Positions 3,314-38,270 of a stretch of 40,613 nucleotides of DNA are shown here, piece by piece. Position numbers and translations under genes: made by a program. Numbering within the stretch: the first letter of the stretch is position 1; each line of letters starts with the position of its first letter. Origin of the DNA: a phage; sequence record PZ019082.1, one strand, 5' to 3'. The notes under the pieces were generated by a model, which saw only the letters and a program-made list of their open reading frames with translations, searched no databases and was not told where the DNA came from.

Positions 3314-3323
3314 GTTCACCTAT

Positions 3324-3346
3324 AGCCCCGAAAGGGGCTTTCTTAT
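3324..3346 (+). terminator. rho-independent terminator-like hairpin
   Basis: AGCCCC-GAAA-GGGGCT stem-loop followed by TTCTTAT. Confidence 0.6.
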
Positions 3347-3349
3347 AGT

Positions 3350-4426
3350 ATGCTATTAACTTTAGCACCACAGGGTTTAACTATGAGCTTACTTACATCC
3401 CTAATCAGCCACCAGATATGGCTGCAACGAACCGCATCCGGCGAAGTGAAAGACCTCGCACCGTTCATTCAGGAAATGCGGGACGAAATCAAACGGCAGG
3501 TGCTGTTATTCGGTGACGACGGGCGAAGCACCGCGCGGCTGAATAAACTGTTACGCGACCTTGAAGAAGCGCTAACCGGACTTACCGGCGACTGGCAAAC
3601 AAAGCTGACAGAAGACCTCAAGGAGCTGGCGGCGTATGAGGCTGAGTGGAACGTAAAGACGCTGGCCACCAACGTAGATGCGGAATTTGTCACGCCTACC
3701 GCCGAACAGGTGTGGGCTGCCGCTGAGTTTCAACCCTTATCATTAAGCGACAAGCCTGTTGATTTCACTAAGCTGATGTCGGGATGGGGTGAAACCGAAG
3801 TAGCACGTCTCGTAACCGGCGTTAAGATGGGCTTTGTTCAGGGTAAGACAACACGGCAGATTGTTACAGAAGTAGTCGGTAAAGGTGGGCTGGCTGACGT
3901 ATCAGAGAAATATGCGGCTACAGTAATCCGCACCGCGCTGTCCCACGTATCCAACGAAGCCCGTAACGAGACGTACCGCCAGAACGACGACATCATCGAG
4001 AAGTACGAGTGGGTGTCGACGCTGGACAGCCGTACCAGTACGATTTGTAGGGCCAGAGACGGAATGACGTGGGAAATCGGTAAGGGGCCGATGCCGCCAG
4101 CACATCCGAATTGCCGGAGTACCACTGCACCAGTAATCAGTTCGGAGTTCGACTTCCTCGATAAGGGAGCAAAACGAGCAGCTAAGGGTGCGGACGGCGG
4201 TATGCAGGTAAGTGCAGACACCACCTATTATGAGTTCCTGAAACAACAACCGGCATGGTTTCAGGACCAGGCTCTAGGCCCTGTTCGCGGTAAGATTTTC
4301 CGTAACAGCGGTATATCGCCGGAAGAGTTTCGCGTAATATCTGTAGATGGTTTCGGGAATCCGCTCACGCTTAAGCAGATGGCGGAACTCGATAAACGTG
4401 TTGCTGATTATCTGAAAGGGGAATAA
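3350..4426 (+). CDS. head morphogenesis protein (Mu F / SPP1 gp7-like, inferred from position)
   Basis: 358 aa ORF following portal; alternative start at 3372; synteny only. Confidence 0.5.
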   Translation: MLLTLAPQGLTMSLLTSLISHQIWLQRTASGEVKDLAPFIQEMRDEIKRQVLLFGDDGRSTARLNKLLRDLEEALTGLTGDWQTKLTEDLKELAAYEAEWNVKTLATNVDAEFVTPTAEQVWAAAEFQPLSLSDKPVDFTKLMSGWGETEVARLVTGVKMGFVQGKTTRQIVTEVVGKGGLADVSEKYAATVIRTALSHVSNEARNETYRQNDDIIEKYEWVSTLDSRTSTICRARDGMTWEIGKGPMPPAHPNCRSTTAPVISSEFDFLDKGAKRAAKGADGGMQVSADTTYYEFLKQQPAWFQDQALGPVRGKIFRNSGISPEEFRVISVDGFGNPLTLKQMAELDKRVADYLKGE

Positions 4427-4887: not shown

Positions 4888-4891
4888 ACTG

Positions 4892-4913
4892 AAGCCCCGA
4901 AAGGGGCTTTTTA
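4892..4913 (+). terminator. rho-independent terminator
   Basis: GCCCC-GAAA-GGGGC hairpin followed by TTTTT. Confidence 0.7.
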
Positions 4914-11100: not shown

Positions 11101-11105
11101 AACTA

Positions 11106-11128
11106 AGGCCCCGAAAGGGGCCTTTTTC
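11106..11128. terminator. bidirectional terminator-like hairpin
   Basis: AGGCCCC-GAAA-GGGGCCT stem; TTTTT on plus side, TTAGTTTT on minus side; separates convergent genes. Confidence 0.65.
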
Positions 11129-12516: not shown

Positions 12517-12544
12517 ATAGTAGCCTACTTATTATCTTGAACAA
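12517..12544 (-). promoter_or_regulatory. sigma70-like promoter (TTGTTC-N16-TACTAT), early-promoter family
   Basis: Minus-strand TTGTTCaagataataagtaggcTACTAT shares aagata..taggcTACTAT with promoter at 35301-35329; upstream of phosphoesterase gene. Confidence 0.4.
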
Positions 12545-12850: not shown

Positions 12851-12890
12851 CCGATAAGTGAATAGTACCCTATTATATTGGGGTGCGCAA
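12851..12890 (-). promoter_or_regulatory. early-type promoter (TTGCGC-N17-TACTAT), near-identical copy of 34301-34340
   Basis: Reverse complement matches 34301-34340 at 37 of 40 positions, including TACTATTCACTTATCGG. Confidence 0.6.
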
Positions 12891-12998
12891 GTAATGTGAT
12901 AGAATAATTTTGCACCTAGTGTCGCGCACGAAAAGCGGTTGGTTACCGCCTGGTGCATTTCTCTTTAACCAACAACCTCTTAACCAAAGGATTAAAGA

Positions 12999-22826: not shown

Positions 22827-22840
22827 TTGACCTAAAACTA

Positions 22841-22863
22841 AGGCCCCAAACGGGGCCTTTTCT
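22841..22863 (+). terminator. rho-independent terminator
   Basis: GGCCCC-AAAC-GGGGCC hairpin followed by TTTT. Confidence 0.75.
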
Positions 22864-23001
22864 CTACTCTTCTGCTAACTTCTCCAGTACAAACGCCAGT
22901 TGCGCATTAGCGGCGTCTCTTTGCTGCCGTAGTCGTAGAACCTCTTCTTCGAGTTCCTTGATACGTTTTTGCAATGCTGGAATCGGCGCTACGATGTTCA
23001 T
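22864..23001 (-). CDS. small coiled-coil protein (45 aa)
   Basis: Not in ORF track; ATGA overlap with HNH stop; RBS GGAG 9 nt upstream; heptad-like KELEEEVLRLRQQRD. Confidence 0.3.
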   Translation of the reverse strand: MNIVAPIPALQKRIKELEEEVLRLRQQRDAANAQLAFVLEKLAEE

Positions 23002-23489
23002 GCGGTTTCTCCGTGGTTTTCATGAAATCCGTAAGCAGCTTCCGCGGCTTTACGCGCGGCAACAGCTTCGTTAAAATCATCAAACCTTCCAATAGTTTTT
23101 GTCTTTCTAAATTTGGTTATCTGCACCAACCACTTGCACCGCTCTTTGTCAAATGACACCCCTACCGCCCCAGACCTATTACGCCCAGTAGCCAGCCTGT
23201 TCATAGCGTTTTCTTGCTTAGTAACTACTCTTAAATTTGCGAGCCTGTTATCCGCGCGATTATGATTCTGGTGGTCTATTTCCATGCCGTCTGGTATAGG
23301 GCCATTGAACATTTCCCATATGACTCGGTGCGCGCGGTAGATAACTCCATTGTAGCGAAACTGAATGTAGCCGAACTTGTTTAGTGTTCCCGCTACCGCA
23401 CCTTTAGCAACATTTTTAGCGGGTTTTATGATCCATATCAGATTTCCAGTCTCTGGTTCATACCGTAGGACATTCTTCCAGATAAACAT
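22998..23489 (-). CDS. HNH endonuclease
   Basis: Motif EIDHQNHNRADNRLANLRVVTKQEN; TAATG overlap with upstream helicase stop. Confidence 0.8.
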   Translation of the reverse strand: MFIWKNVLRYEPETGNLIWIIKPAKNVAKGAVAGTLNKFGYIQFRYNGVIYRAHRVIWEMFNGPIPDGMEIDHQNHNRADNRLANLRVVTKQENAMNRLATGRNRSGAVGVSFDKERCKWLVQITKFRKTKTIGRFDDFNEAVAARKAAEAAYGFHENHGETA

Positions 23490-25098: not shown

Positions 25099-25128
25099 TT
25101 CTCAATTCCTTATATTGTTGGTGTAGGG

Positions 25129-25413
25129 CTAACTATAATAGTTAGCTATTAGGTCGTCAACCTGTTTAAACGAACCAACGACAAAAACATTCGCGCCACG
25201 TTTACGCATCCGCGCGTGTTCACGTAGCTGGTGCGGGTCTGGCTTCGTGTTTTCGTCTTTCTTAACCTCGACGAACCAGACTATGCCGCCGGGGAGAATT
25301 ACCAGCAGGTCAGGAGCGCCTGAGCGCCCCTCGTAAGACAGCTTACGAACGAGGCCACCAATGGCCTCGAACATCTCTTTTGCGTATTTCTGAATCTTGC
25401 CTTCCGGGGTCAT
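25129..25413 (-). CDS. VRR-NUC domain nuclease
   Basis: PD-(D/E)XK-like motif PDLLV ... FVEVKK; 94 aa. Confidence 0.65.
   Translation of the reverse strand: MTPEGKIQKYAKEMFEAIGGLVRKLSYEGRSGAPDLLVILPGGIVWFVEVKKDENTKPDPHQLREHARMRKRGANVFVVGSFKQVDDLIANYYS
25132..25160 (-). promoter_or_regulatory. sigma70-like promoter TTGACG-N17-TATAGTTAG
   Basis: Minus-strand TTGACGacctaatagctaactatTATAGTTAG; lies within the 3-prime end of the VRR-NUC coding sequence; same architecture as 28687-28715 and 30806-30834. Confidence 0.5.
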
Positions 25414-27946: not shown

Positions 27947-27963
27947 TATTTTCGACCCTTAGT

Positions 27964-27984
27964 AAAAAGGCCCAATGAAGGGCC
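27964..27984 (-). terminator. terminator-like hairpin (minus strand)
   Basis: GGCCC-TTCATT-GGGCC followed by TTTTT on minus strand, between DUF2815-like gene and DNA polymerase. Confidence 0.45.
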
Positions 27985-28005
27985 TTAGTTAAATTGATTC
28001 AGATA

Positions 28006-28686: not shown

Positions 28687-28715
28687 ACTATAATAGCTAA
28701 CTATTCAGGTGTCAA
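28687..28715 (-). promoter_or_regulatory. sigma70 consensus-like promoter TTGACA-N17-TATAGT
   Basis: Minus-strand TTGACAcctgaatagttagctatTATAGTTC in intergenic region upstream of 28632 start. Confidence 0.6.
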
Positions 28716-30805: not shown

Positions 30806-30834
30806 ACTATAATAGCGAACTATTCACATGTCAA
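30806..30834 (-). promoter_or_regulatory. sigma70 consensus promoter TTGACA-N17-TATAGTTAGCCC
   Basis: Minus-strand TTGACAtgtgaatagttcgctatTATAGT followed by conserved leader AAACGAGAGGAGAGA. Confidence 0.65.
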
Positions 30835-30838
30835 TGGG

Positions 30839-30867
30839 CTTTTCTAAAATAATTAATATGGTACTAT
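30839..30867 (+). promoter_or_regulatory. putative promoter for XRE regulator gene (-10 TACTAT, weak -35)
   Basis: gTACTATTCACATATCAA upstream of RBS AAGGAG and ATG 30899; AT-rich upstream region. Confidence 0.35.
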
Positions 30868-30898
30868 TCACATATCAACTGACTAAGGAGTAATTGAC

Positions 30899-31114
30899 AT
30901 GCAACCATCTGAACTAGGCATTCGTGTAGAACAACGCCGTAAAGAACTCGGCATCTCCCAGCGCCGTCTGGCTGTCCTGACCGGGGTTTCCCAGGGCGCG
31001 ATTAACCAGCTTGCGCTCGGGGTAACTCAGGACGTCCGCCCGGCGACGCTGTTTAAACTGGCGGAAGTGCTGCAAGTAGACGCCAAGTGGCTGGCGTTAG
31101 GTGAAGGGGCTTAA
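30899..31114 (+). CDS. XRE-family helix-turn-helix transcriptional regulator (71 aa)
   Basis: HTH segment ISQRRLAVLTGVSQGAINQLALG; RBS AAGGAG; followed by terminator. Confidence 0.7.
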   Translation: MQPSELGIRVEQRRKELGISQRRLAVLTGVSQGAINQLALGVTQDVRPATLFKLAEVLQVDAKWLALGEGA

Positions 31115-33460: not shown

Positions 33461-33736
33461 TTATTCCAGGTCGCGGGAGATATTACCCTCGGGGACCAAC
33501 ACTTTTCCAATACTTCTCGCTTTCCCGTTAAGCGGCGTTGCTCTTGTTGCCCGATAAAACTTTCCTTTATTAAGAACCTCTCCGTGTTGCTCAAGAACAC
33601 TTAAAGCATGTTTAATCGGATTTACACCGTAATTATCTAACCGGTATCTACGAAGCCCGTCTAGTGTAAAAGCGCCGTTCGCCTCGGTCAGTCTGCGTGC
33701 GCACATTAATACGTGTTTCTGGAATTTAGTTAGCAT
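33461..33736 (-). CDS. hypothetical protein (91 aa)
   Basis: RBS AAGGAG 10 nt upstream; overlaps end of upstream regulator gene. Confidence 0.45.
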   Translation of the reverse strand: MLTKFQKHVLMCARRLTEANGAFTLDGLRRYRLDNYGVNPIKHALSVLEQHGEVLNKGKFYRATRATPLNGKARSIGKVLVPEGNISRDLE

Positions 33737-33905
33737 CTTTTACGTTCTCCTTAATCCAAGCCTCCACGGTAGCGCGGTCAAATGTGCCTGGCTGCCGGTA
33801 GCCGTTAATAACCCGGCAACACTCGGGGAACTTACCTGACCGAAGCCAGCGATTAAGTGTCATAGGGGAAACTCCGATTAAGTCTGCTACTTCTTTCTGT
33901 GTCAT
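33726..33905 (-). CDS. AlpA-like / excisionase-like HTH DNA-binding protein
   Basis: MTQKEVADLIGVSPMTLNRWLRSGKFPE matches AlpA-type HTH pattern; ATG at 33905 with RBS AGAGGG (track start TTG 33935). Confidence 0.55.
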   Translation of the reverse strand: MTQKEVADLIGVSPMTLNRWLRSGKFPECCRVINGYRQPGTFDRATVEAWIKENVKDAN

Positions 33906-33934
33906 TTTACACACCCTCTTTATCAAGTGAAACA

Positions 33935-33963
33935 ACTATAACACCTACAATAACTAAACACAA
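33935..33963 (-). promoter_or_regulatory. putative promoter TTGTGT-N17-TATAGT for minus-strand regulatory/primase operon
   Basis: Minus-strand motif 29 nt upstream of ATG 33905; divergent from plus promoter 33968-33995. Confidence 0.4.
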
Positions 33964-33967
33964 CCTA

Positions 33968-33995
33968 TTGACAAAATAAAATGTAGCTGTAAAAT
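33968..33995 (+). promoter_or_regulatory. putative promoter TTGACA-N16-TAAAAT
   Basis: Consensus -35 and good -10 on plus strand, about 370 nt upstream of the first plus-strand early gene. Confidence 0.4.
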
Positions 33996-34200
33996 CAACG
34001 TATCGAAGGACCTTAGTTCAGAATTACTTAGAAACATTATTCTTAAGTCTCTGGTGACCAAAGCCCGGCCCATAAAGGACGGGCGCTGAGAGTCACTTCG
34101 ACAACGTTAGTATCTAAGTTTCCTCAAAGTAACAGCAAGTAGCAAGAAAGCCCCCGTCTATTTAAATTTTGCCATATGGTATAAATCATTGATTTGCAAG

Positions 34201-34215
34201 CTCACTCACTCACTC
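34201..34215. repeat. short tandem repeat (CTCA)n, about 3.75 units
   Basis: ctcactcactcactc directly visible. Confidence 0.6.
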
Positions 34216-34300
34216 TTGGTGCCTTCGGCACCACGTTCGTTTCGTTTCGCTCGCTACCCCCATTAAACGAAAGAATCACAACGGCAACGTAACTATTCTC

Positions 34301-34329
34301 TTGCACACCCCAACATAATAGGATACTAT
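34301..34329 (+). promoter_or_regulatory. early promoter TTGCAC-N17-TACTAT
   Basis: Followed by TCACTTATCGG and leader AACGAGACAGAGGAG; 40-bp element repeated on minus strand at 12851-12890. Confidence 0.6.
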
Positions 34330-34363
34330 TCACTTATCGGAACGAGACAGAGGAGTGAGGGTT

Positions 34364-34549
34364 ATGTTTAAGAAGGGTCAGTTGGTGAGAATTTTGGAGA
34401 CAGGGGGGTTAGCGGTTATTTCATTCGCACACCACAAAGAATGTAGTGTTTATTTTGCAAAATCTTTAACGGGGTCCTATCTCACCGTGTTATACGCACA
34501 AGATATGAAACTCATCGGCAACAATTTTAAATTCAAAGGGGCGAAGTGA
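34364..34549 (+). CDS. hypothetical early protein (61 aa)
   Basis: ATG with RBS AGGAG 8 nt upstream (track ORF starts at GTG 34355). Confidence 0.5.
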   Translation: MFKKGQLVRILETGGLAVISFAHHKECSVYFAKSLTGSYLTVLYAQDMKLIGNNFKFKGAK

Positions 34550-34752
34550 TGGAAGAATTATTTGAAGAACTGAAACATCATGAGTTCGAGGAGATATATT
34601 TTGTAGCTGAACGCTACGAGGTGCATTTAGTGGACGGGGTTACAATTATTACAATGGATAGCCAGCAAATGCTAAATAGCTTACGGGCTATACGAACGGC
34701 ATCTAATCATGATGCTCGTGCCGACGACTCCGAGGGAGGTTGCCGTGAATAA
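34549..34752 (+). CDS. hypothetical early protein (67 aa)
   Basis: TGATG overlap with upstream stop. Confidence 0.45.
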   Translation: MEELFEELKHHEFEEIYFVAERYEVHLVDGVTIITMDSQQMLNSLRAIRTASNHDARADDSEGGCRE

Positions 34753-34812
34753 TTACCCGTTCATTTTAATTGTCAGCGCCGTTTATGTGGTGCACGCGTT
34801 GCGGGGGTTGGT

Positions 34813-35007
34813 ATGAGTCCATATAACGAATCCCGCTTACGCCGTCTGATTGGTGGTCTGCGCGCCGCCGAGTTTGTTGTTGAATGTTGGGAGAAGGTGC
34901 AATATGCCCCATGGAAGTCGTGGCATTTGGCTCATGCTAAGGAGGTAGCACAGTACCGTGAGTACAAGTTAAACAGTTTCCTTAAACACCACGGGGTTGA
35001 GTTATGA
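34813..35007 (+). CDS. hypothetical early protein (64 aa)
   Basis: ORF with G-rich RBS. Confidence 0.45.
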   Translation: MSPYNESRLRRLIGGLRAAEFVVECWEKVQYAPWKSWHLAHAKEVAQYREYKLNSFLKHHGVEL

Positions 35008-35153
35008 GAGAAGCATTTGAACGGTGGGCCGTAGTCGAGGGTCTGCCGGTTAACAAGGGTTCAAAGAAAGAGTACCTGAACGTTAAGACGCGTCTCGCGT
35101 GGCGGGCGTGGAAAGCTGGTGTGCAAGCCCGAGCTGGTGTAACAGGTCAATAG
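35004..35153 (+). CDS. hypothetical small protein (49 aa)
   Basis: Not in ORF track; ATGA overlap with upstream stop. Confidence 0.35.
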   Translation: MREAFERWAVVEGLPVNKGSKKEYLNVKTRLAWRAWKAGVQARAGVTGQ

Positions 35154-35208
35154 GTTACTATTTGGCTTAGTGACTTACGCTGCTACACAGCAGCGTACAA
35201 CTTTAACT

Positions 35209-35300: not shown

Positions 35301-35329
35301 CTTGCACACTAAGATAGAATAGGCTACTA
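35301..35329 (+). promoter_or_regulatory. early promoter TTGCAC-N17-TACTAT
   Basis: Same architecture as 34301-34329; followed by TCATTTACAC and leader AAACGAGAGGAGAGA. Confidence 0.6.
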
Positions 35330-35361
35330 TTCATTTACACAAACGAGAGGAGAGACAGAAG

Positions 35362-35481
35362 ATGGGTTGGTACGGTAGCTGGACATTAGGCGAACTGGTA
35401 GACGCTTACGAAATAATGGGTAGCACTTCGGTGTGCGACGGCGACACTAAAGCGATAACAATGGGGGTTGATGATGAGTAA
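35362..35481 (+). CDS. small early peptide (39 aa)
   Basis: Not in ORF track; ATG directly after conserved leader AAACGAGAGGAGAGACAGAAG. Confidence 0.35.
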   Translation: MGWYGSWTLGELVDAYEIMGSTSVCDGDTKAITMGVDDE

Positions 35482-36745: not shown

Positions 36746-37054
36746 TTGGATAAATTTACTGAAACAGTGACGGGGTGGCTTCTCGCTGCCGCACTGGTCG
36801 GTGGATTGGTCGGACTAAGACAACATAAAAAGTCTATATCCGGGCCGATTGACGGACTGGTATTTCTTCTAACCGGCTTTGCGTGTGCCATTTTCGGTGC
36901 ACCTCTTGCCGCTCAATGGTTCGGTATTACCGGTGAGCGTGAGATAGCTGGCCTCGGATTCATCATTGCCATTCTCTGGATGCCTATCTATTCCCGCCTT
37001 TCTGGCATCGTATCGGGTGGAGATATTTCCCGTCCGGGAGGACCTCATGACTGA
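36746..37054 (+). CDS. putative holin (three predicted transmembrane segments)
   Basis: TTG start 6 nt after RBS GGAGGA; three hydrophobic segments; immediately upstream of endolysin cluster. Confidence 0.5.
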   Translation: MDKFTETVTGWLLAAALVGGLVGLRQHKKSISGPIDGLVFLLTGFACAIFGAPLAAQWFGITGEREIAGLGFIIAILWMPIYSRLSGIVSGGDISRPGGPHD

Positions 37055-37319
37055 GCTATTCTGGTTTGTCGTAATGCTTTCAATGGGCGCTTCGTCCCTG
37101 TTCAACGTGTATAATGAGCGTGTGGACGACGGGCTGTTCGGGCGTGTTCTCTATATCCTGACCGCTATTGTCTGCGCCGCCGGGTGTATCCACCTGTTAC
37201 AGGGCGGCATGTCGCCTACGTTGCCCGAGACATTAATCACATTAGTTGCGCTGCGTCAGATTCGTCAGGCGTGGCTGTCGTACGGAGGACATAAGCGTGT
37301 CTCGAAACATTTCAGATAA
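37047..37319 (+). CDS. second small membrane protein (possible antiholin or holin partner)
   Basis: ATG with RBS GGAGGA overlapping holin end; two hydrophobic segments. Confidence 0.4.
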   Translation: MTELFWFVVMLSMGASSLFNVYNERVDDGLFGRVLYILTAIVCAAGCIHLLQGGMSPTLPETLITLVALRQIRQAWLSYGGHKRVSKHFR

Positions 37320-37782
37320 TGGATTGCATTTTACCTCTGCATTTGAGGGATTCCGCGGAACTGCGTATCGTGCTACCCCAAACGAGAAGTACCTTACTAT
37401 TGGGTACGGACATTACGGGCCGGACGTAACCCCGGGTAAGACCATCACACCGGGGCAGGGCTTGCTGTTACTGAATCGCGATATGGCTAAGGCTGTAGCT
37501 GCGGTTGACGCGGCAGCACACCATTCGCTGACACAGGCACAGTTTGATGCAGTGTGCGACCTGGTCTATAACGCGGGTGCTGGTGTGATTGCAGCTACTA
37601 CAGGCACGGGTAAGGCGCTGCGTTCTGGTGATATTGCAACGCTGCGGGCTAAGCTGGCGCTGTTTATCAACCAGAACGGCAAACCGTTACTCGGCCTGCG
37701 TCGCCGTACAGCCGGACGCCTTGCACTGTTCGACGGTAAACCGTGGCAGGAGGCTGAGGCTATTGGGAGGGCTGTTAAATGA
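37297..37782 (+). CDS. endolysin, glycoside hydrolase family 24 (T4-type lysozyme)
   Basis: Motif FEGFRGTAYRATPNEKYLTIGYGHYG; GTG start with RBS GGAGGA (track ORF starts at 37246). Confidence 0.75.
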   Translation: MSRNISDNGLHFTSAFEGFRGTAYRATPNEKYLTIGYGHYGPDVTPGKTITPGQGLLLLNRDMAKAVAAVDAAAHHSLTQAQFDAVCDLVYNAGAGVIAATTGTGKALRSGDIATLRAKLALFINQNGKPLLGLRRRTAGRLALFDGKPWQEAEAIGRAVK

Positions 37783-37816: not shown

Positions 37817-37902
37817 CGCCGCTTGTGCTTGCGAAGGATTGAAGTGATGATGGACGAATACGAAGGCGTTTAGTAAACTTACATCACGCCGCTTGTGCTT
37901 GC
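37817..37902. repeat. 16-bp direct repeat CGCCGCTTGTGCTTGC (37817-37832 and 37887-37902)
   Basis: Exact repeat in noncoding region downstream of endolysin. Confidence 0.6.
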
Positions 37903-37906
37903 ACCA

Positions 37907-37934
37907 CCCCGAAACCCGGACCCCGAAACCCGGA
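37907..37934. repeat. tandem duplication of 14-bp unit CCCCGAAACCCGGA
   Basis: Two exact adjacent copies; second copy forms the 5-prime arm of the terminator hairpin. Confidence 0.65.
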
Positions 37935-37956
37935 CCGCGAATCCGGGTTTTATTTT
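37928..37956 (+). terminator. rho-independent terminator
   Basis: ACCCGGA-CCGCGAA-TCCGGGT hairpin followed by TTTTATTTT. Confidence 0.7.
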
Positions 37957-38186: not shown

Positions 38187-38207
38187 TTTATTTTCTGCAA
38201 TGACTAG

Positions 38208-38236
38208 TTGACTATTACCTTCGACCCTATTATATT
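38208..38236 (+). promoter_or_regulatory. promoter TTGACT-N17-TATATT
   Basis: Followed by leader AACGAGAACGGAGTAGAGAGA and ATG 38271. Confidence 0.55.
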
Positions 38237-38270
38237 TACTCCATCGACAACGAGAACGGAGTAGAGAGAA

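Follow-up and report, generated by a model that had tools for sequence, protein, structure and literature searches.

Among the closest described counterparts of the control circuit considered here is that of phage 434. 434 Cro binds as a dimer to 14-bp operators and contacts their outer bases, and the 434 OR/OL sites, like the operators of the lambda and P22 Cro proteins, have conserved outer bases and a variable centre. The 434 operators have ACAA half-sites, are arranged in two clusters of three, and cover several promoters, including that of the regulator itself, in a divergent control region with a CI repressor. In phi29, a small phage DNA-binding protein acts at sites over several host-polymerase promoters (p4/p6 at A2b/A2c), and p4 also activates the late promoter from an upstream site. 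The moron cassettes of tailed phages provide a parallel of another kind, in that a promoter-leader block is kept as far as the ATG and the downstream genes vary.

Repeats of the type analyzed below have been noticed in relatives of the present phage. Seven PHIRE "phage promoters", with the consensus tgAATAGTa-ccTATTat-T, were described in fBC-Eco01 and ascribed to a phage-encoded RNA polymerase (PMC9825357), and seven PHIRE promoters, whose sequences the text does not list, were also reported for VB_EcoS-Golestan (PMC7203180). The fBC-Eco01 consensus is the reverse complement of A-ATAATAgg-tACTATTca and corresponds to the same element, at the same relative places, but it was given in one orientation only, whereas the element is found in both orientations in our sequence. 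Neither of these papers remarks on the palindromic symmetry, on the existence of two sigma-70 architectures, on a link with an XRE protein or on the leader box. In the literature searched, the palindrome was nowhere described as an operator and the other three features were likewise unreported, and neither mapped transcript starts nor binding assays came to light for phages of this subfamily. The only Kagunavirus RNA-seq study (K1B4) assigned 42 of 57 genes to a "middle" class, these classes being coarse and defined at the gene level, with no starts mapped.

The window, that is, the whole stretch of DNA analyzed (PZ019082.1, 40.6 kb), shares about 90% identity with Kagunaviruses such as the Escherichia phages K1G, K1H and K1ind, and has the same gene order as K1H. 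It is the almost complete genome of a virulent E. coli phage of the genus Kagunavirus (Guernseyvirinae), a group of small virulent siphoviruses related to the Salmonella Jerseyviruses. No RNA polymerase or sigma factor gene was found in the window or in the annotated relatives (K1H, HSE2 and SETP3 for the polymerase); the window is therefore taken to be transcribed by the host sigma-70 RNA polymerase. No CI repressor, integrase or lysogeny module was found in the window either. Near-identical terminator hairpins (GCCCCGAAAGGGGC with T-runs) are located at 3320-3344, 4889-4913, 11103-11127, 22838-22862 and 27960-27990, several of them bidirectional and at the borders of plus- and minus-strand blocks, and tandem CCCCGAAACCCGGA-like repeats (37880-37950) run into a terminator-like hairpin immediately after the endolysin gene. 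The replication block also contains an HNH endonuclease gene (22998-23489, minus strand; Pfam HNH_3, 1.6e-23), probably encoding a homing endonuclease.

The initial annotation described a family of early promoters with the sequence TTGCAC-N17-TACTAT. This sequence was found at 34301-34329 on the plus strand (promoter A), but the second plus-strand copy lies at 35302-35330 rather than starting at 35301 (promoter B), and the minus-strand copy at 12890-12862 (promoter C), although it has the N17-TACTAT part, reads TTGCGC instead of TTGCAC. The pattern TTGC(A/G)C-N17-TACTAT occurs exactly three times in the window (34301 and 35302 on the plus strand, 12890 on the minus strand) and not at all in shuffled sequence; we refer to these promoters as family 1. 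A motif scan of the window yielded three exact copies of TACTATTCAYTTA, a count reached by none of 100 shuffles, together with a one-mismatch copy at 30862, and the longer pattern TTG-N13-AATAGNNTACTATT gave three matches versus 0.00 expected from the shuffles. The segments 12851-12891 and 34300-34340 are 93% identical across 41 nt. The copy described as related at 12517-12544 on the minus strand is weak: its palindrome has two mismatches and its -35 is not kept in phage HSE2.

The family-1 hexamers have only 3/6 and 4/6 matches to the consensus, so that their activity could depend on a positive factor, either in place of a repressor or in addition to one. A reading of family 1 in the reverse direction was rejected: the -35 that it would require is not improved, no minus-strand gene is available for promoter B to drive, and the TTG is kept on the forward side only. 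The stretch from the HTH_17 gene to promoter A (33936-34300) is non-coding over about 365 nt and includes a near-consensus promoter without the palindrome (TTGACA-N16-TAAAAT, 33968-33995, plus strand), (CTCA)n and (CGTTT)n repeats (34200-34215 and 34234-34250) and a hairpin (34217-34233). This stretch may provide an immediate-early promoter free of regulation, or else encode a non-coding RNA.

A repeat search of the window revealed a perfect 14-bp palindrome, AATAG-N4-CTATT, which had been overlooked. It is the top over-represented gapped palindrome in the window (about 200 times expectation), with seven exact copies (12861, 25137, 28692, 30811, 34317, 35149 and 35318) and five with one mismatch, including those at 30855, 38203 and 3344. 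The 12 sites with at most one mismatch compare with an expectation of 0.89, and none of 100 shuffles reached 12. In its Kagunavirus form the operator extends to TAATAG-N4-CTATTCA. The sites and the surrounding features are listed in Table 1, in which we infer transcript starts on the assumption that transcription begins 7 nt past the -10.

Table 1. Features of the window related to the palindrome-bearing promoters, their leaders and the candidate regulators
Feature	Position	Strand	Sequence	Remarks
Terminase to tail genes		+		
Palindrome, one mismatch	3344..3357		TATAGTATGCTATT	Directly after the terminator behind the portal gene
Insert in tail module	11.1-12.9 kb	-		
Promoter C	12862..12890	-	TTGCGC-N17-TACTAT	Operator 12861-12874; predicted start 12855
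Genes under promoter C		-		Tail-module insert: small protein, then 376-aa DNA-repair exonuclease
Replication block	22.9-30.8 kb	-		
Family-2 promoter	25132..25160	-	TTGACG-N17-TATAGT	Operator 25137-25150; predicted start ~25125
Family-2 promoter	28687..28715	-	TTGACA-N17-TATAGT	Operator 28692-28705; predicted start ~28680
Leader of leftward replication operon		-		AACGAGA 30793-30787; ATG 30774
Leftward replication promoter	30806..30834	-	TTGACA-N17-TATAGT	Operator O1 30811-30824 in spacer; predicted start 30799
XRE gene promoter (predicted)	30823-30850	+	TTCACA-N16-TAAAAT	Flanked by O1 and O2; predicted start ~30857
Operator O2	30855-30868		AATATGGTACTATT	One mismatch; covers predicted XRE start
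XRE/Cro-type gene	30899..31114	+		71-aa HTH_3 protein (Pfam 1.1e-12)
Helicase-primase operon		-		After the XRE gene in gene order
HTH_17 (AlpA/excisionase-like) gene	33726..33935	-		Alternative candidate regulator
Small genes, holin, endolysin	34.3-37.8 kb	+		Followed by more small genes back to terminase
Promoter A	-35 34301-34306; -10 34324-34329	+	TTGCAC, TACTAT	17-nt spacer; predicted start 34336
Operator of promoter A	34317..34330		AATAGGATACTATT	Exact palindrome arms; overlaps spacer and -10
Promoter A leader (predicted)	34336..34363	+		AACGAGA 34341-34347; Shine-Dalgarno GAGGAG 34350-34355; ATG 34364
Promoter A operon	34364..35153	+		Small genes
Orphan operator	35149..35162		AATAGGTTACTATT	Exact; no -35; end of first small-gene operon
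Promoter B	35302..35330	+	TTGCAC-N17-TACTAT	Operator 35318-35331; predicted start 35337; AACGAGA 35342-35348
Promoter B operon	From ATG 35362	+		Onward through holin (36746..37054) and endolysin (37246..37782)
38208 promoter	38208-38236	+	TTGACT-N17-TATATT	One-mismatch operator 38203-38216 over -35; predicted start 38243
Leader of 38208 promoter		+		AACGAGA 38249-38255; ATG 38271

The palindrome takes up different places relative to these predicted starts. In the TTGCAC family it lies at about -19 to -6, its right arm and last two central bases forming the -10 TACTAT; the initial annotation was right in supposing a regulator site in these promoters, but this site spans the spacer and the -10 and is not "beyond the -10", the TCAC after the -10 being merely the asymmetric flank of the palindrome. 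In the TTGACA family it lies at about -25 to -12, wholly in the spacer and with the CTATTCA flank on the opposite side relative to transcription, at the 38208 promoter it lies at about -40 to -27, over the -35, and at the promoter of the XRE gene itself at about +1 to +12. The same sequence is found in two orientations and in at least three registers with respect to the downstream genes, one copy (35149) having no -35, and it is therefore not itself a promoter but behaves as an operator over ordinary promoters. The location of both arms in the spacer in family 2, where they are not read by sigma-70, also indicates an operator rather than a promoter element. An origin of the palindrome from bidirectional promoters was rejected, since only three of its seven exact copies lie between genes that diverge.

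Three exact palindromes sit in near-consensus minus-strand promoters, TTGAC(A/G)-N17-TATAGT (25160, 28715 and 30834), which have 11/12 consensus matches, stand at the start of the replication operons and are referred to here as family 2. The 28715 promoter is 5' of the DUF2815 and DNA polymerase genes and the 25160 promoter is 5' of helicase genes. The regulon suggested by the initial annotation is very probably real, but it is larger than was seen, with the replication operons, the promoter of the XRE gene and the 38208 promoter in addition. Co-regulation is likewise retained from the description as a "co-regulated early regulon", but the term "early" is unproven, because promoter B heads an operon with holin and endolysin. 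O1 and O2 are 44 bp apart, and O1 falls both on the -35 of the XRE promoter and in the spacer of the leftward promoter that diverges from it. A distance of 169 bp separates the orphan operator at 35149 from operator B, which is downstream of it, and the orphan copy is kept in relatives; it is preceded by GGTGTAACAGGT, which several relatives carry as a tandem duplication, and followed by a hairpin, GCTGCTACACAGCAGC (35120-35162). The palindrome at 3344 is kept in K1H, HSE2 and SS3e. The 25132-25160 promoter and its operator (25137) lie in the last codons of ORF 25129..25413, a VRR-NUC/Holliday-junction resolvase homologue, and the palindrome is therefore also coding sequence there.

In all, at least eight (about ten) promoters of the window carry the palindrome, and they are very probably real and co-regulated. 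Families 1 and 2, with three copies each, have a -35 starting with TTG and a TANNNT -10 separated by 17±1 nt, and the promoters are placed 5' of co-oriented genes, with a short leader and a purine 7 nt after the -10, as in sigma-70 promoters. The embedded sites have the properties of operators: they are several, dyad-symmetric and 14-18 bp long, with conserved arms and a variable centre, and they overlap core promoters, that of the candidate regulator included. They do not resemble T4 MotA-type middle promoters, in which an activator box centred near -30 takes the place of the -35, as the -35 TTG is kept and the palindrome, at -25 to -6, overlaps the -10.

The same element is the top gapped palindrome in K1H (seven copies) and SETP3 (five copies, as TAATAG-N4-CTATTA) and the joint top palindrome in SS3e (three copies). 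It is also present in Serratia phage Tsm2, and it was top or joint-top in all 47 Kagunavirus/Jerseyvirus loci from IMG/VR, which were gathered through the XRE protein. The SETP3 record annotates the orthologues of the 12890 (promoter C) and 28715 sites as promoters. The relatives contain 71 unique sites of the family-1 type, conserved promoter A among them, and 87 of the family-2 type, with the TTG at a fixed distance, the presence of the TTG being itself a selection criterion for these sites. The central 4 bp are free in the family-2 sites and constrained to NNTA in those of family 1, where the centre doubles as the start of the -10 hexamer.

AATAG-N4-CTATT is missing from lineages in which the XRE protein has about 45% identity or less. 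Symmetric variants occupy equivalent promoter positions in such distant lineages, namely AATAC-N4-GTATT in L178 and TATTA-N6-TAATA in the Salmonella phage TS6 (L005), where the latter is found at three promoters and AATAG-N4-CTATT is absent. Two direct copies of GAATAACTATTCAC, 21 bp apart, were also noted in TS6, beside the helicase gene (1138-1175). A scan of IMG/VR with ATAATAGNNTACTATT returned mostly chance matches in unrelated AT-rich contigs and only about 25 Guernseyvirinae. Three contigs from outside this subfamily with ATAATAGCTTACTATTCAC (L024, L027 and L055) had one copy each and no XRE homologue, and were dismissed as chance matches on these grounds.

The XRE and AlpA-like proteins had both been put forward for binding assays, and the XRE protein is the best candidate regulator: it is an HTH_3 protein akin to 434 Cro, and two operators bracket its own promoter. 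The nearest solved structures are 434 Cro, which also has 71 aa (E = 7e-6), and the N-terminal domain of the 434 repressor (1.3e-5), with P22 C2 also among the closest solved relatives. Like 434 Cro, to which it is detectably homologous, it is a single-domain protein, and the arrangement resembles that of 434 in that the operators are 14 bp long, vary at the centre but not in the outer bases, and lie in multiple copies over promoters, the regulator's own included, in a divergent control region. Unlike 434, the present phage has no CI, integrase or lysogeny module, and is therefore not provided with a bistable switch; in place of a divergent CI, the gene divergent from the XRE gene encodes a 166-aa protein with no function assigned, followed by replication genes. 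The operators are also scattered over at least eight promoters genome-wide, in contrast to the two clusters of three in 434, and their half-site is AATAG as opposed to ACAA, binding being a prediction in our case. The resemblance to phi29 lies in a small phage DNA-binding protein with sites over several host-polymerase promoters and a proposed role in timing without lysogeny, but the protein family differs, and no site corresponding to the upstream activating site of p4 was seen here.

The base flanking CTATT is a C in 40/40 loci with a Kagunavirus-type XRE protein and an A in 13/13 with a Jerseyvirus-type protein. It follows the XRE type in 53/53 loci, whatever the HTH_17 variant, a correlation that is confounded with genus. 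We consider it most likely that the palindrome is recognized by a small Cro-like repressor that the phage itself encodes, a suggestion based on sequence comparison. We assign a probability of about 0.6 to the reading in which sigma-70 promoters contain an operator bound by a dimeric HTH repressor of the phage, the likeliest being the XRE protein.

The shared leader described in the initial annotation was recovered in part: an AACGAGA core is placed alike in four leaders, but the exact 14-mer AACGAGAGGAGAGA occurs only twice in the window, at 35342 (plus strand) and 30793-30780 (minus strand). A loose scan for AACGAGAGGAGAGA, with up to three mismatches, showed no enrichment in the window, and the positional analysis of the 7-mer core was used in its place. 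There are 10 copies of AACGAGA on both strands of the window, versus about 5 expected. Four of them (34341, 35342, 30793 on the minus strand and 38249) lie 11-12 nt past a -10 and 9-15 nt before a start codon, a positional coincidence far beyond chance (roughly 0.01 expected, by our own estimate). If the start is taken 7 nt after the -10, AACGAGA falls at +6/+7 of four predicted transcripts and is followed by GGAG and the ATG. In every promoter with a leader, the base exactly 7 nt past the -10 is an A, and this A precedes the start codon by 24-33 nt.

The predicted leader of promoter A was unstructured when folded, and all four leaders were less stable than shuffled controls (z of +0.7 to +1.8), which argues against a structured leader RNA; no Rfam match was obtained anywhere in the window. 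Given this poor folding and the lack of an Rfam match, the simplest reading is an open purine-rich translation-initiation region. AACGAGA is kept at orthologous promoters of SETP3 and Tsm2, and the leftward promoter of Tsm2 retains it with the palindrome absent. It also follows promoters other than those of the TTGCAC-type architecture, and many relatives pair the same promoter with other leaders, so that the coupling of promoter and leader supposed earlier is not obligatory. We also considered a sigma-70-dependent promoter-proximal pause element of the lambda PR' type, for which a -10-like TANNNT would be expected early in the transcript, but rejected it, as AACGAG(A), unlike the lambda hexamer AACGAT, lacks the final T.

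Another leader motif, CACCAAC(A), also recurs: it was noted after the -10 at 25100-25131 (minus strand), in SETP3 (27430 and 34479), in TS6 (872 and 4241) and in many "moron" promoters of family 1 from IMG/VR. Upstream of the 38208 promoter, the segment 38086-38190 (plus strand) comprises a promoter-like TTGACA-N17-GATACT, then a pyrimidine-rich run of about 75 nt (ACCTCCTGTTCCATCCCTCTACTCTCC) and, after it, a strong terminator, CCCGGCCCTGACCCAGCCGGG-T8. It is a candidate small RNA with an anti-Shine-Dalgarno-like CCUCC and no Rfam match, and its CUCUACUC shows complementarity to GAGUAGAG, which lies at 38258-38266 in the leader of the following gene.

Several other explanations of the repeats have to be considered. 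It is extremely improbable that they are promoters for a phage-encoded RNA polymerase, as stated for fBC-Eco01, in which PHIRE lists the motif as a "phage promoter" with seven copies (PMC9825357). This is refuted by gene content, the window and its annotated relatives having no polymerase or sigma gene, and the copies occur in both orientations and three registers rather than in a single orientation at a fixed distance. Sigma-70 hexamers with a conserved TTG accompany the element, and PHIRE detects repeats only, the attribution to a polymerase being the default label of the program. The palindrome could instead be a positive element at which the XRE protein, or some other small early protein of the phage, would recruit or remodel the host RNA polymerase, the weak TTGCAC/TACTAT promoters firing only after infection, as in T4 middle or phi29 late activation. 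This would suit the poor consensus of family 1, which a simple promoter scan missed, and the conservation over 41 nt, with a spacer ACCCCAAYAT, which exceeds the needs of sigma-70. A strong promoter without a -35 consensus, said to interact with a phage-specific factor, was reportedly found in the 1990s in the related Salmonella phage MB78. However, the site covers the -10 and the spacer and not the -41 or -61 positions of activators, the spacers are of 17 nt as opposed to the 19-20 nt of MerR-type activation, the near-consensus family-2 promoters carry the same site, and one site (30855) is downstream of a predicted start. We therefore regard activation as unlikely.

It is similarly unlikely that the operator is real but bound by something other than the XRE protein, such as the HTH_17 protein, another small phage protein or a host regulator. 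A second HTH gene does lie 400 bp upstream of promoter A, there is no palindrome 5' of the XRE gene in Tsm2, although other Tsm2 promoters have palindromes, and the TS6-like phages lack the site despite an XRE recognition helix fairly similar to that of the Jerseyviruses; the last two observations count against the link with the XRE protein. The HTH_17 homologue, however, is undetectable in Tsm2, which carries the palindrome, and the HTH_17 type varies inside Kagunavirus with the operator unchanged. AlpA/Xis-type proteins, moreover, usually bind direct repeats as monomers. A host regulator is disfavored by the flank base, which differs between the E. coli and the Salmonella phages although their hosts' regulators are nearly identical, and by what is presumably only a partial resemblance of the palindrome to the TrpR, Fur, ArgR, CRP and Cra boxes.

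The promoter-leader blocks might also be mainly recombination junctions for swaps of accessory genes, with constitutive promoters and no dedicated regulator. In relatives (L127-L162), conservation of the promoter-B block extends as far as the ATG, whereas more than ten different versions of the first gene follow it (35337-35364); the block therefore also marks a mosaic junction, sharply placed at the start codon, and family-1 cassettes precede different "moron" genes in other Kagunaviruses. As in the moron cassettes of tailed phages, the block is kept and the downstream genes vary, and cassettes head minus-strand genes inserted in the structural module. Unlike moron junctions, however, the block has a dyad-symmetric operator in common with non-mosaic replication promoters. 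A role as junction alone leaves unexplained the exact dyad symmetry, the promoter-less copy, the copies in near-consensus replication promoters and the two copies around the XRE promoter, and we consider it very unlikely. The junction and operator roles are compatible.

The family of host-type promoters is thus real and conserved, its members share an embedded dyad-symmetric operator, and together they most likely constitute the regulon of a Cro-like repressor without a lysogeny switch. A phage-encoded dimeric HTH protein would bind AATAG-N4-CTATT and block RNA polymerase, because the operator always overlaps the core promoter; it is from this overlap that we infer the direction of regulation, and the pairing of protein and DNA is likewise predicted. 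The likeliest binder, the 71-aa XRE protein, would repress its own promoter and gradually lower the expression of the accessory genes, the replication operons and the operon that includes the lysis genes, and so serve as a temporal brake of the Cro type. The AACGAGA...GGAG leader would be a separate module, an unstructured purine-rich 5' UTR or ribosome-binding region heading four operons. The purpose of a repressor over nearly all the promoters of a virulent phage is not demonstrated, and we count this against the repressor reading. A more ambitious version, in which a single Cro-like protein would control essentially the whole programme of a virulent phage in three registers and AACGAGA would be the target of a second regulator, appears doubtful; this second regulator may act post-transcriptionally or at the level of initiation, beyond the effect of a good ribosome-binding region.

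The promoter control circuit is real but fairly ordinary for phages, and the repeat had already been noticed in relatives. Kagunaviruses and Jerseyviruses are nonetheless isolated for therapy and food safety more often than most phages, and have been suggested as small chassis for synthetic biology, but there has been almost no work on how their genes are regulated. A correct map of the promoters, the operators and the likely master regulator replaces the wrong statement in the literature concerning a phage RNA polymerase, explains the presence of a "repressor" gene in genomes labelled strictly lytic, and offers portable, regulator-controlled promoter-leader cassettes.
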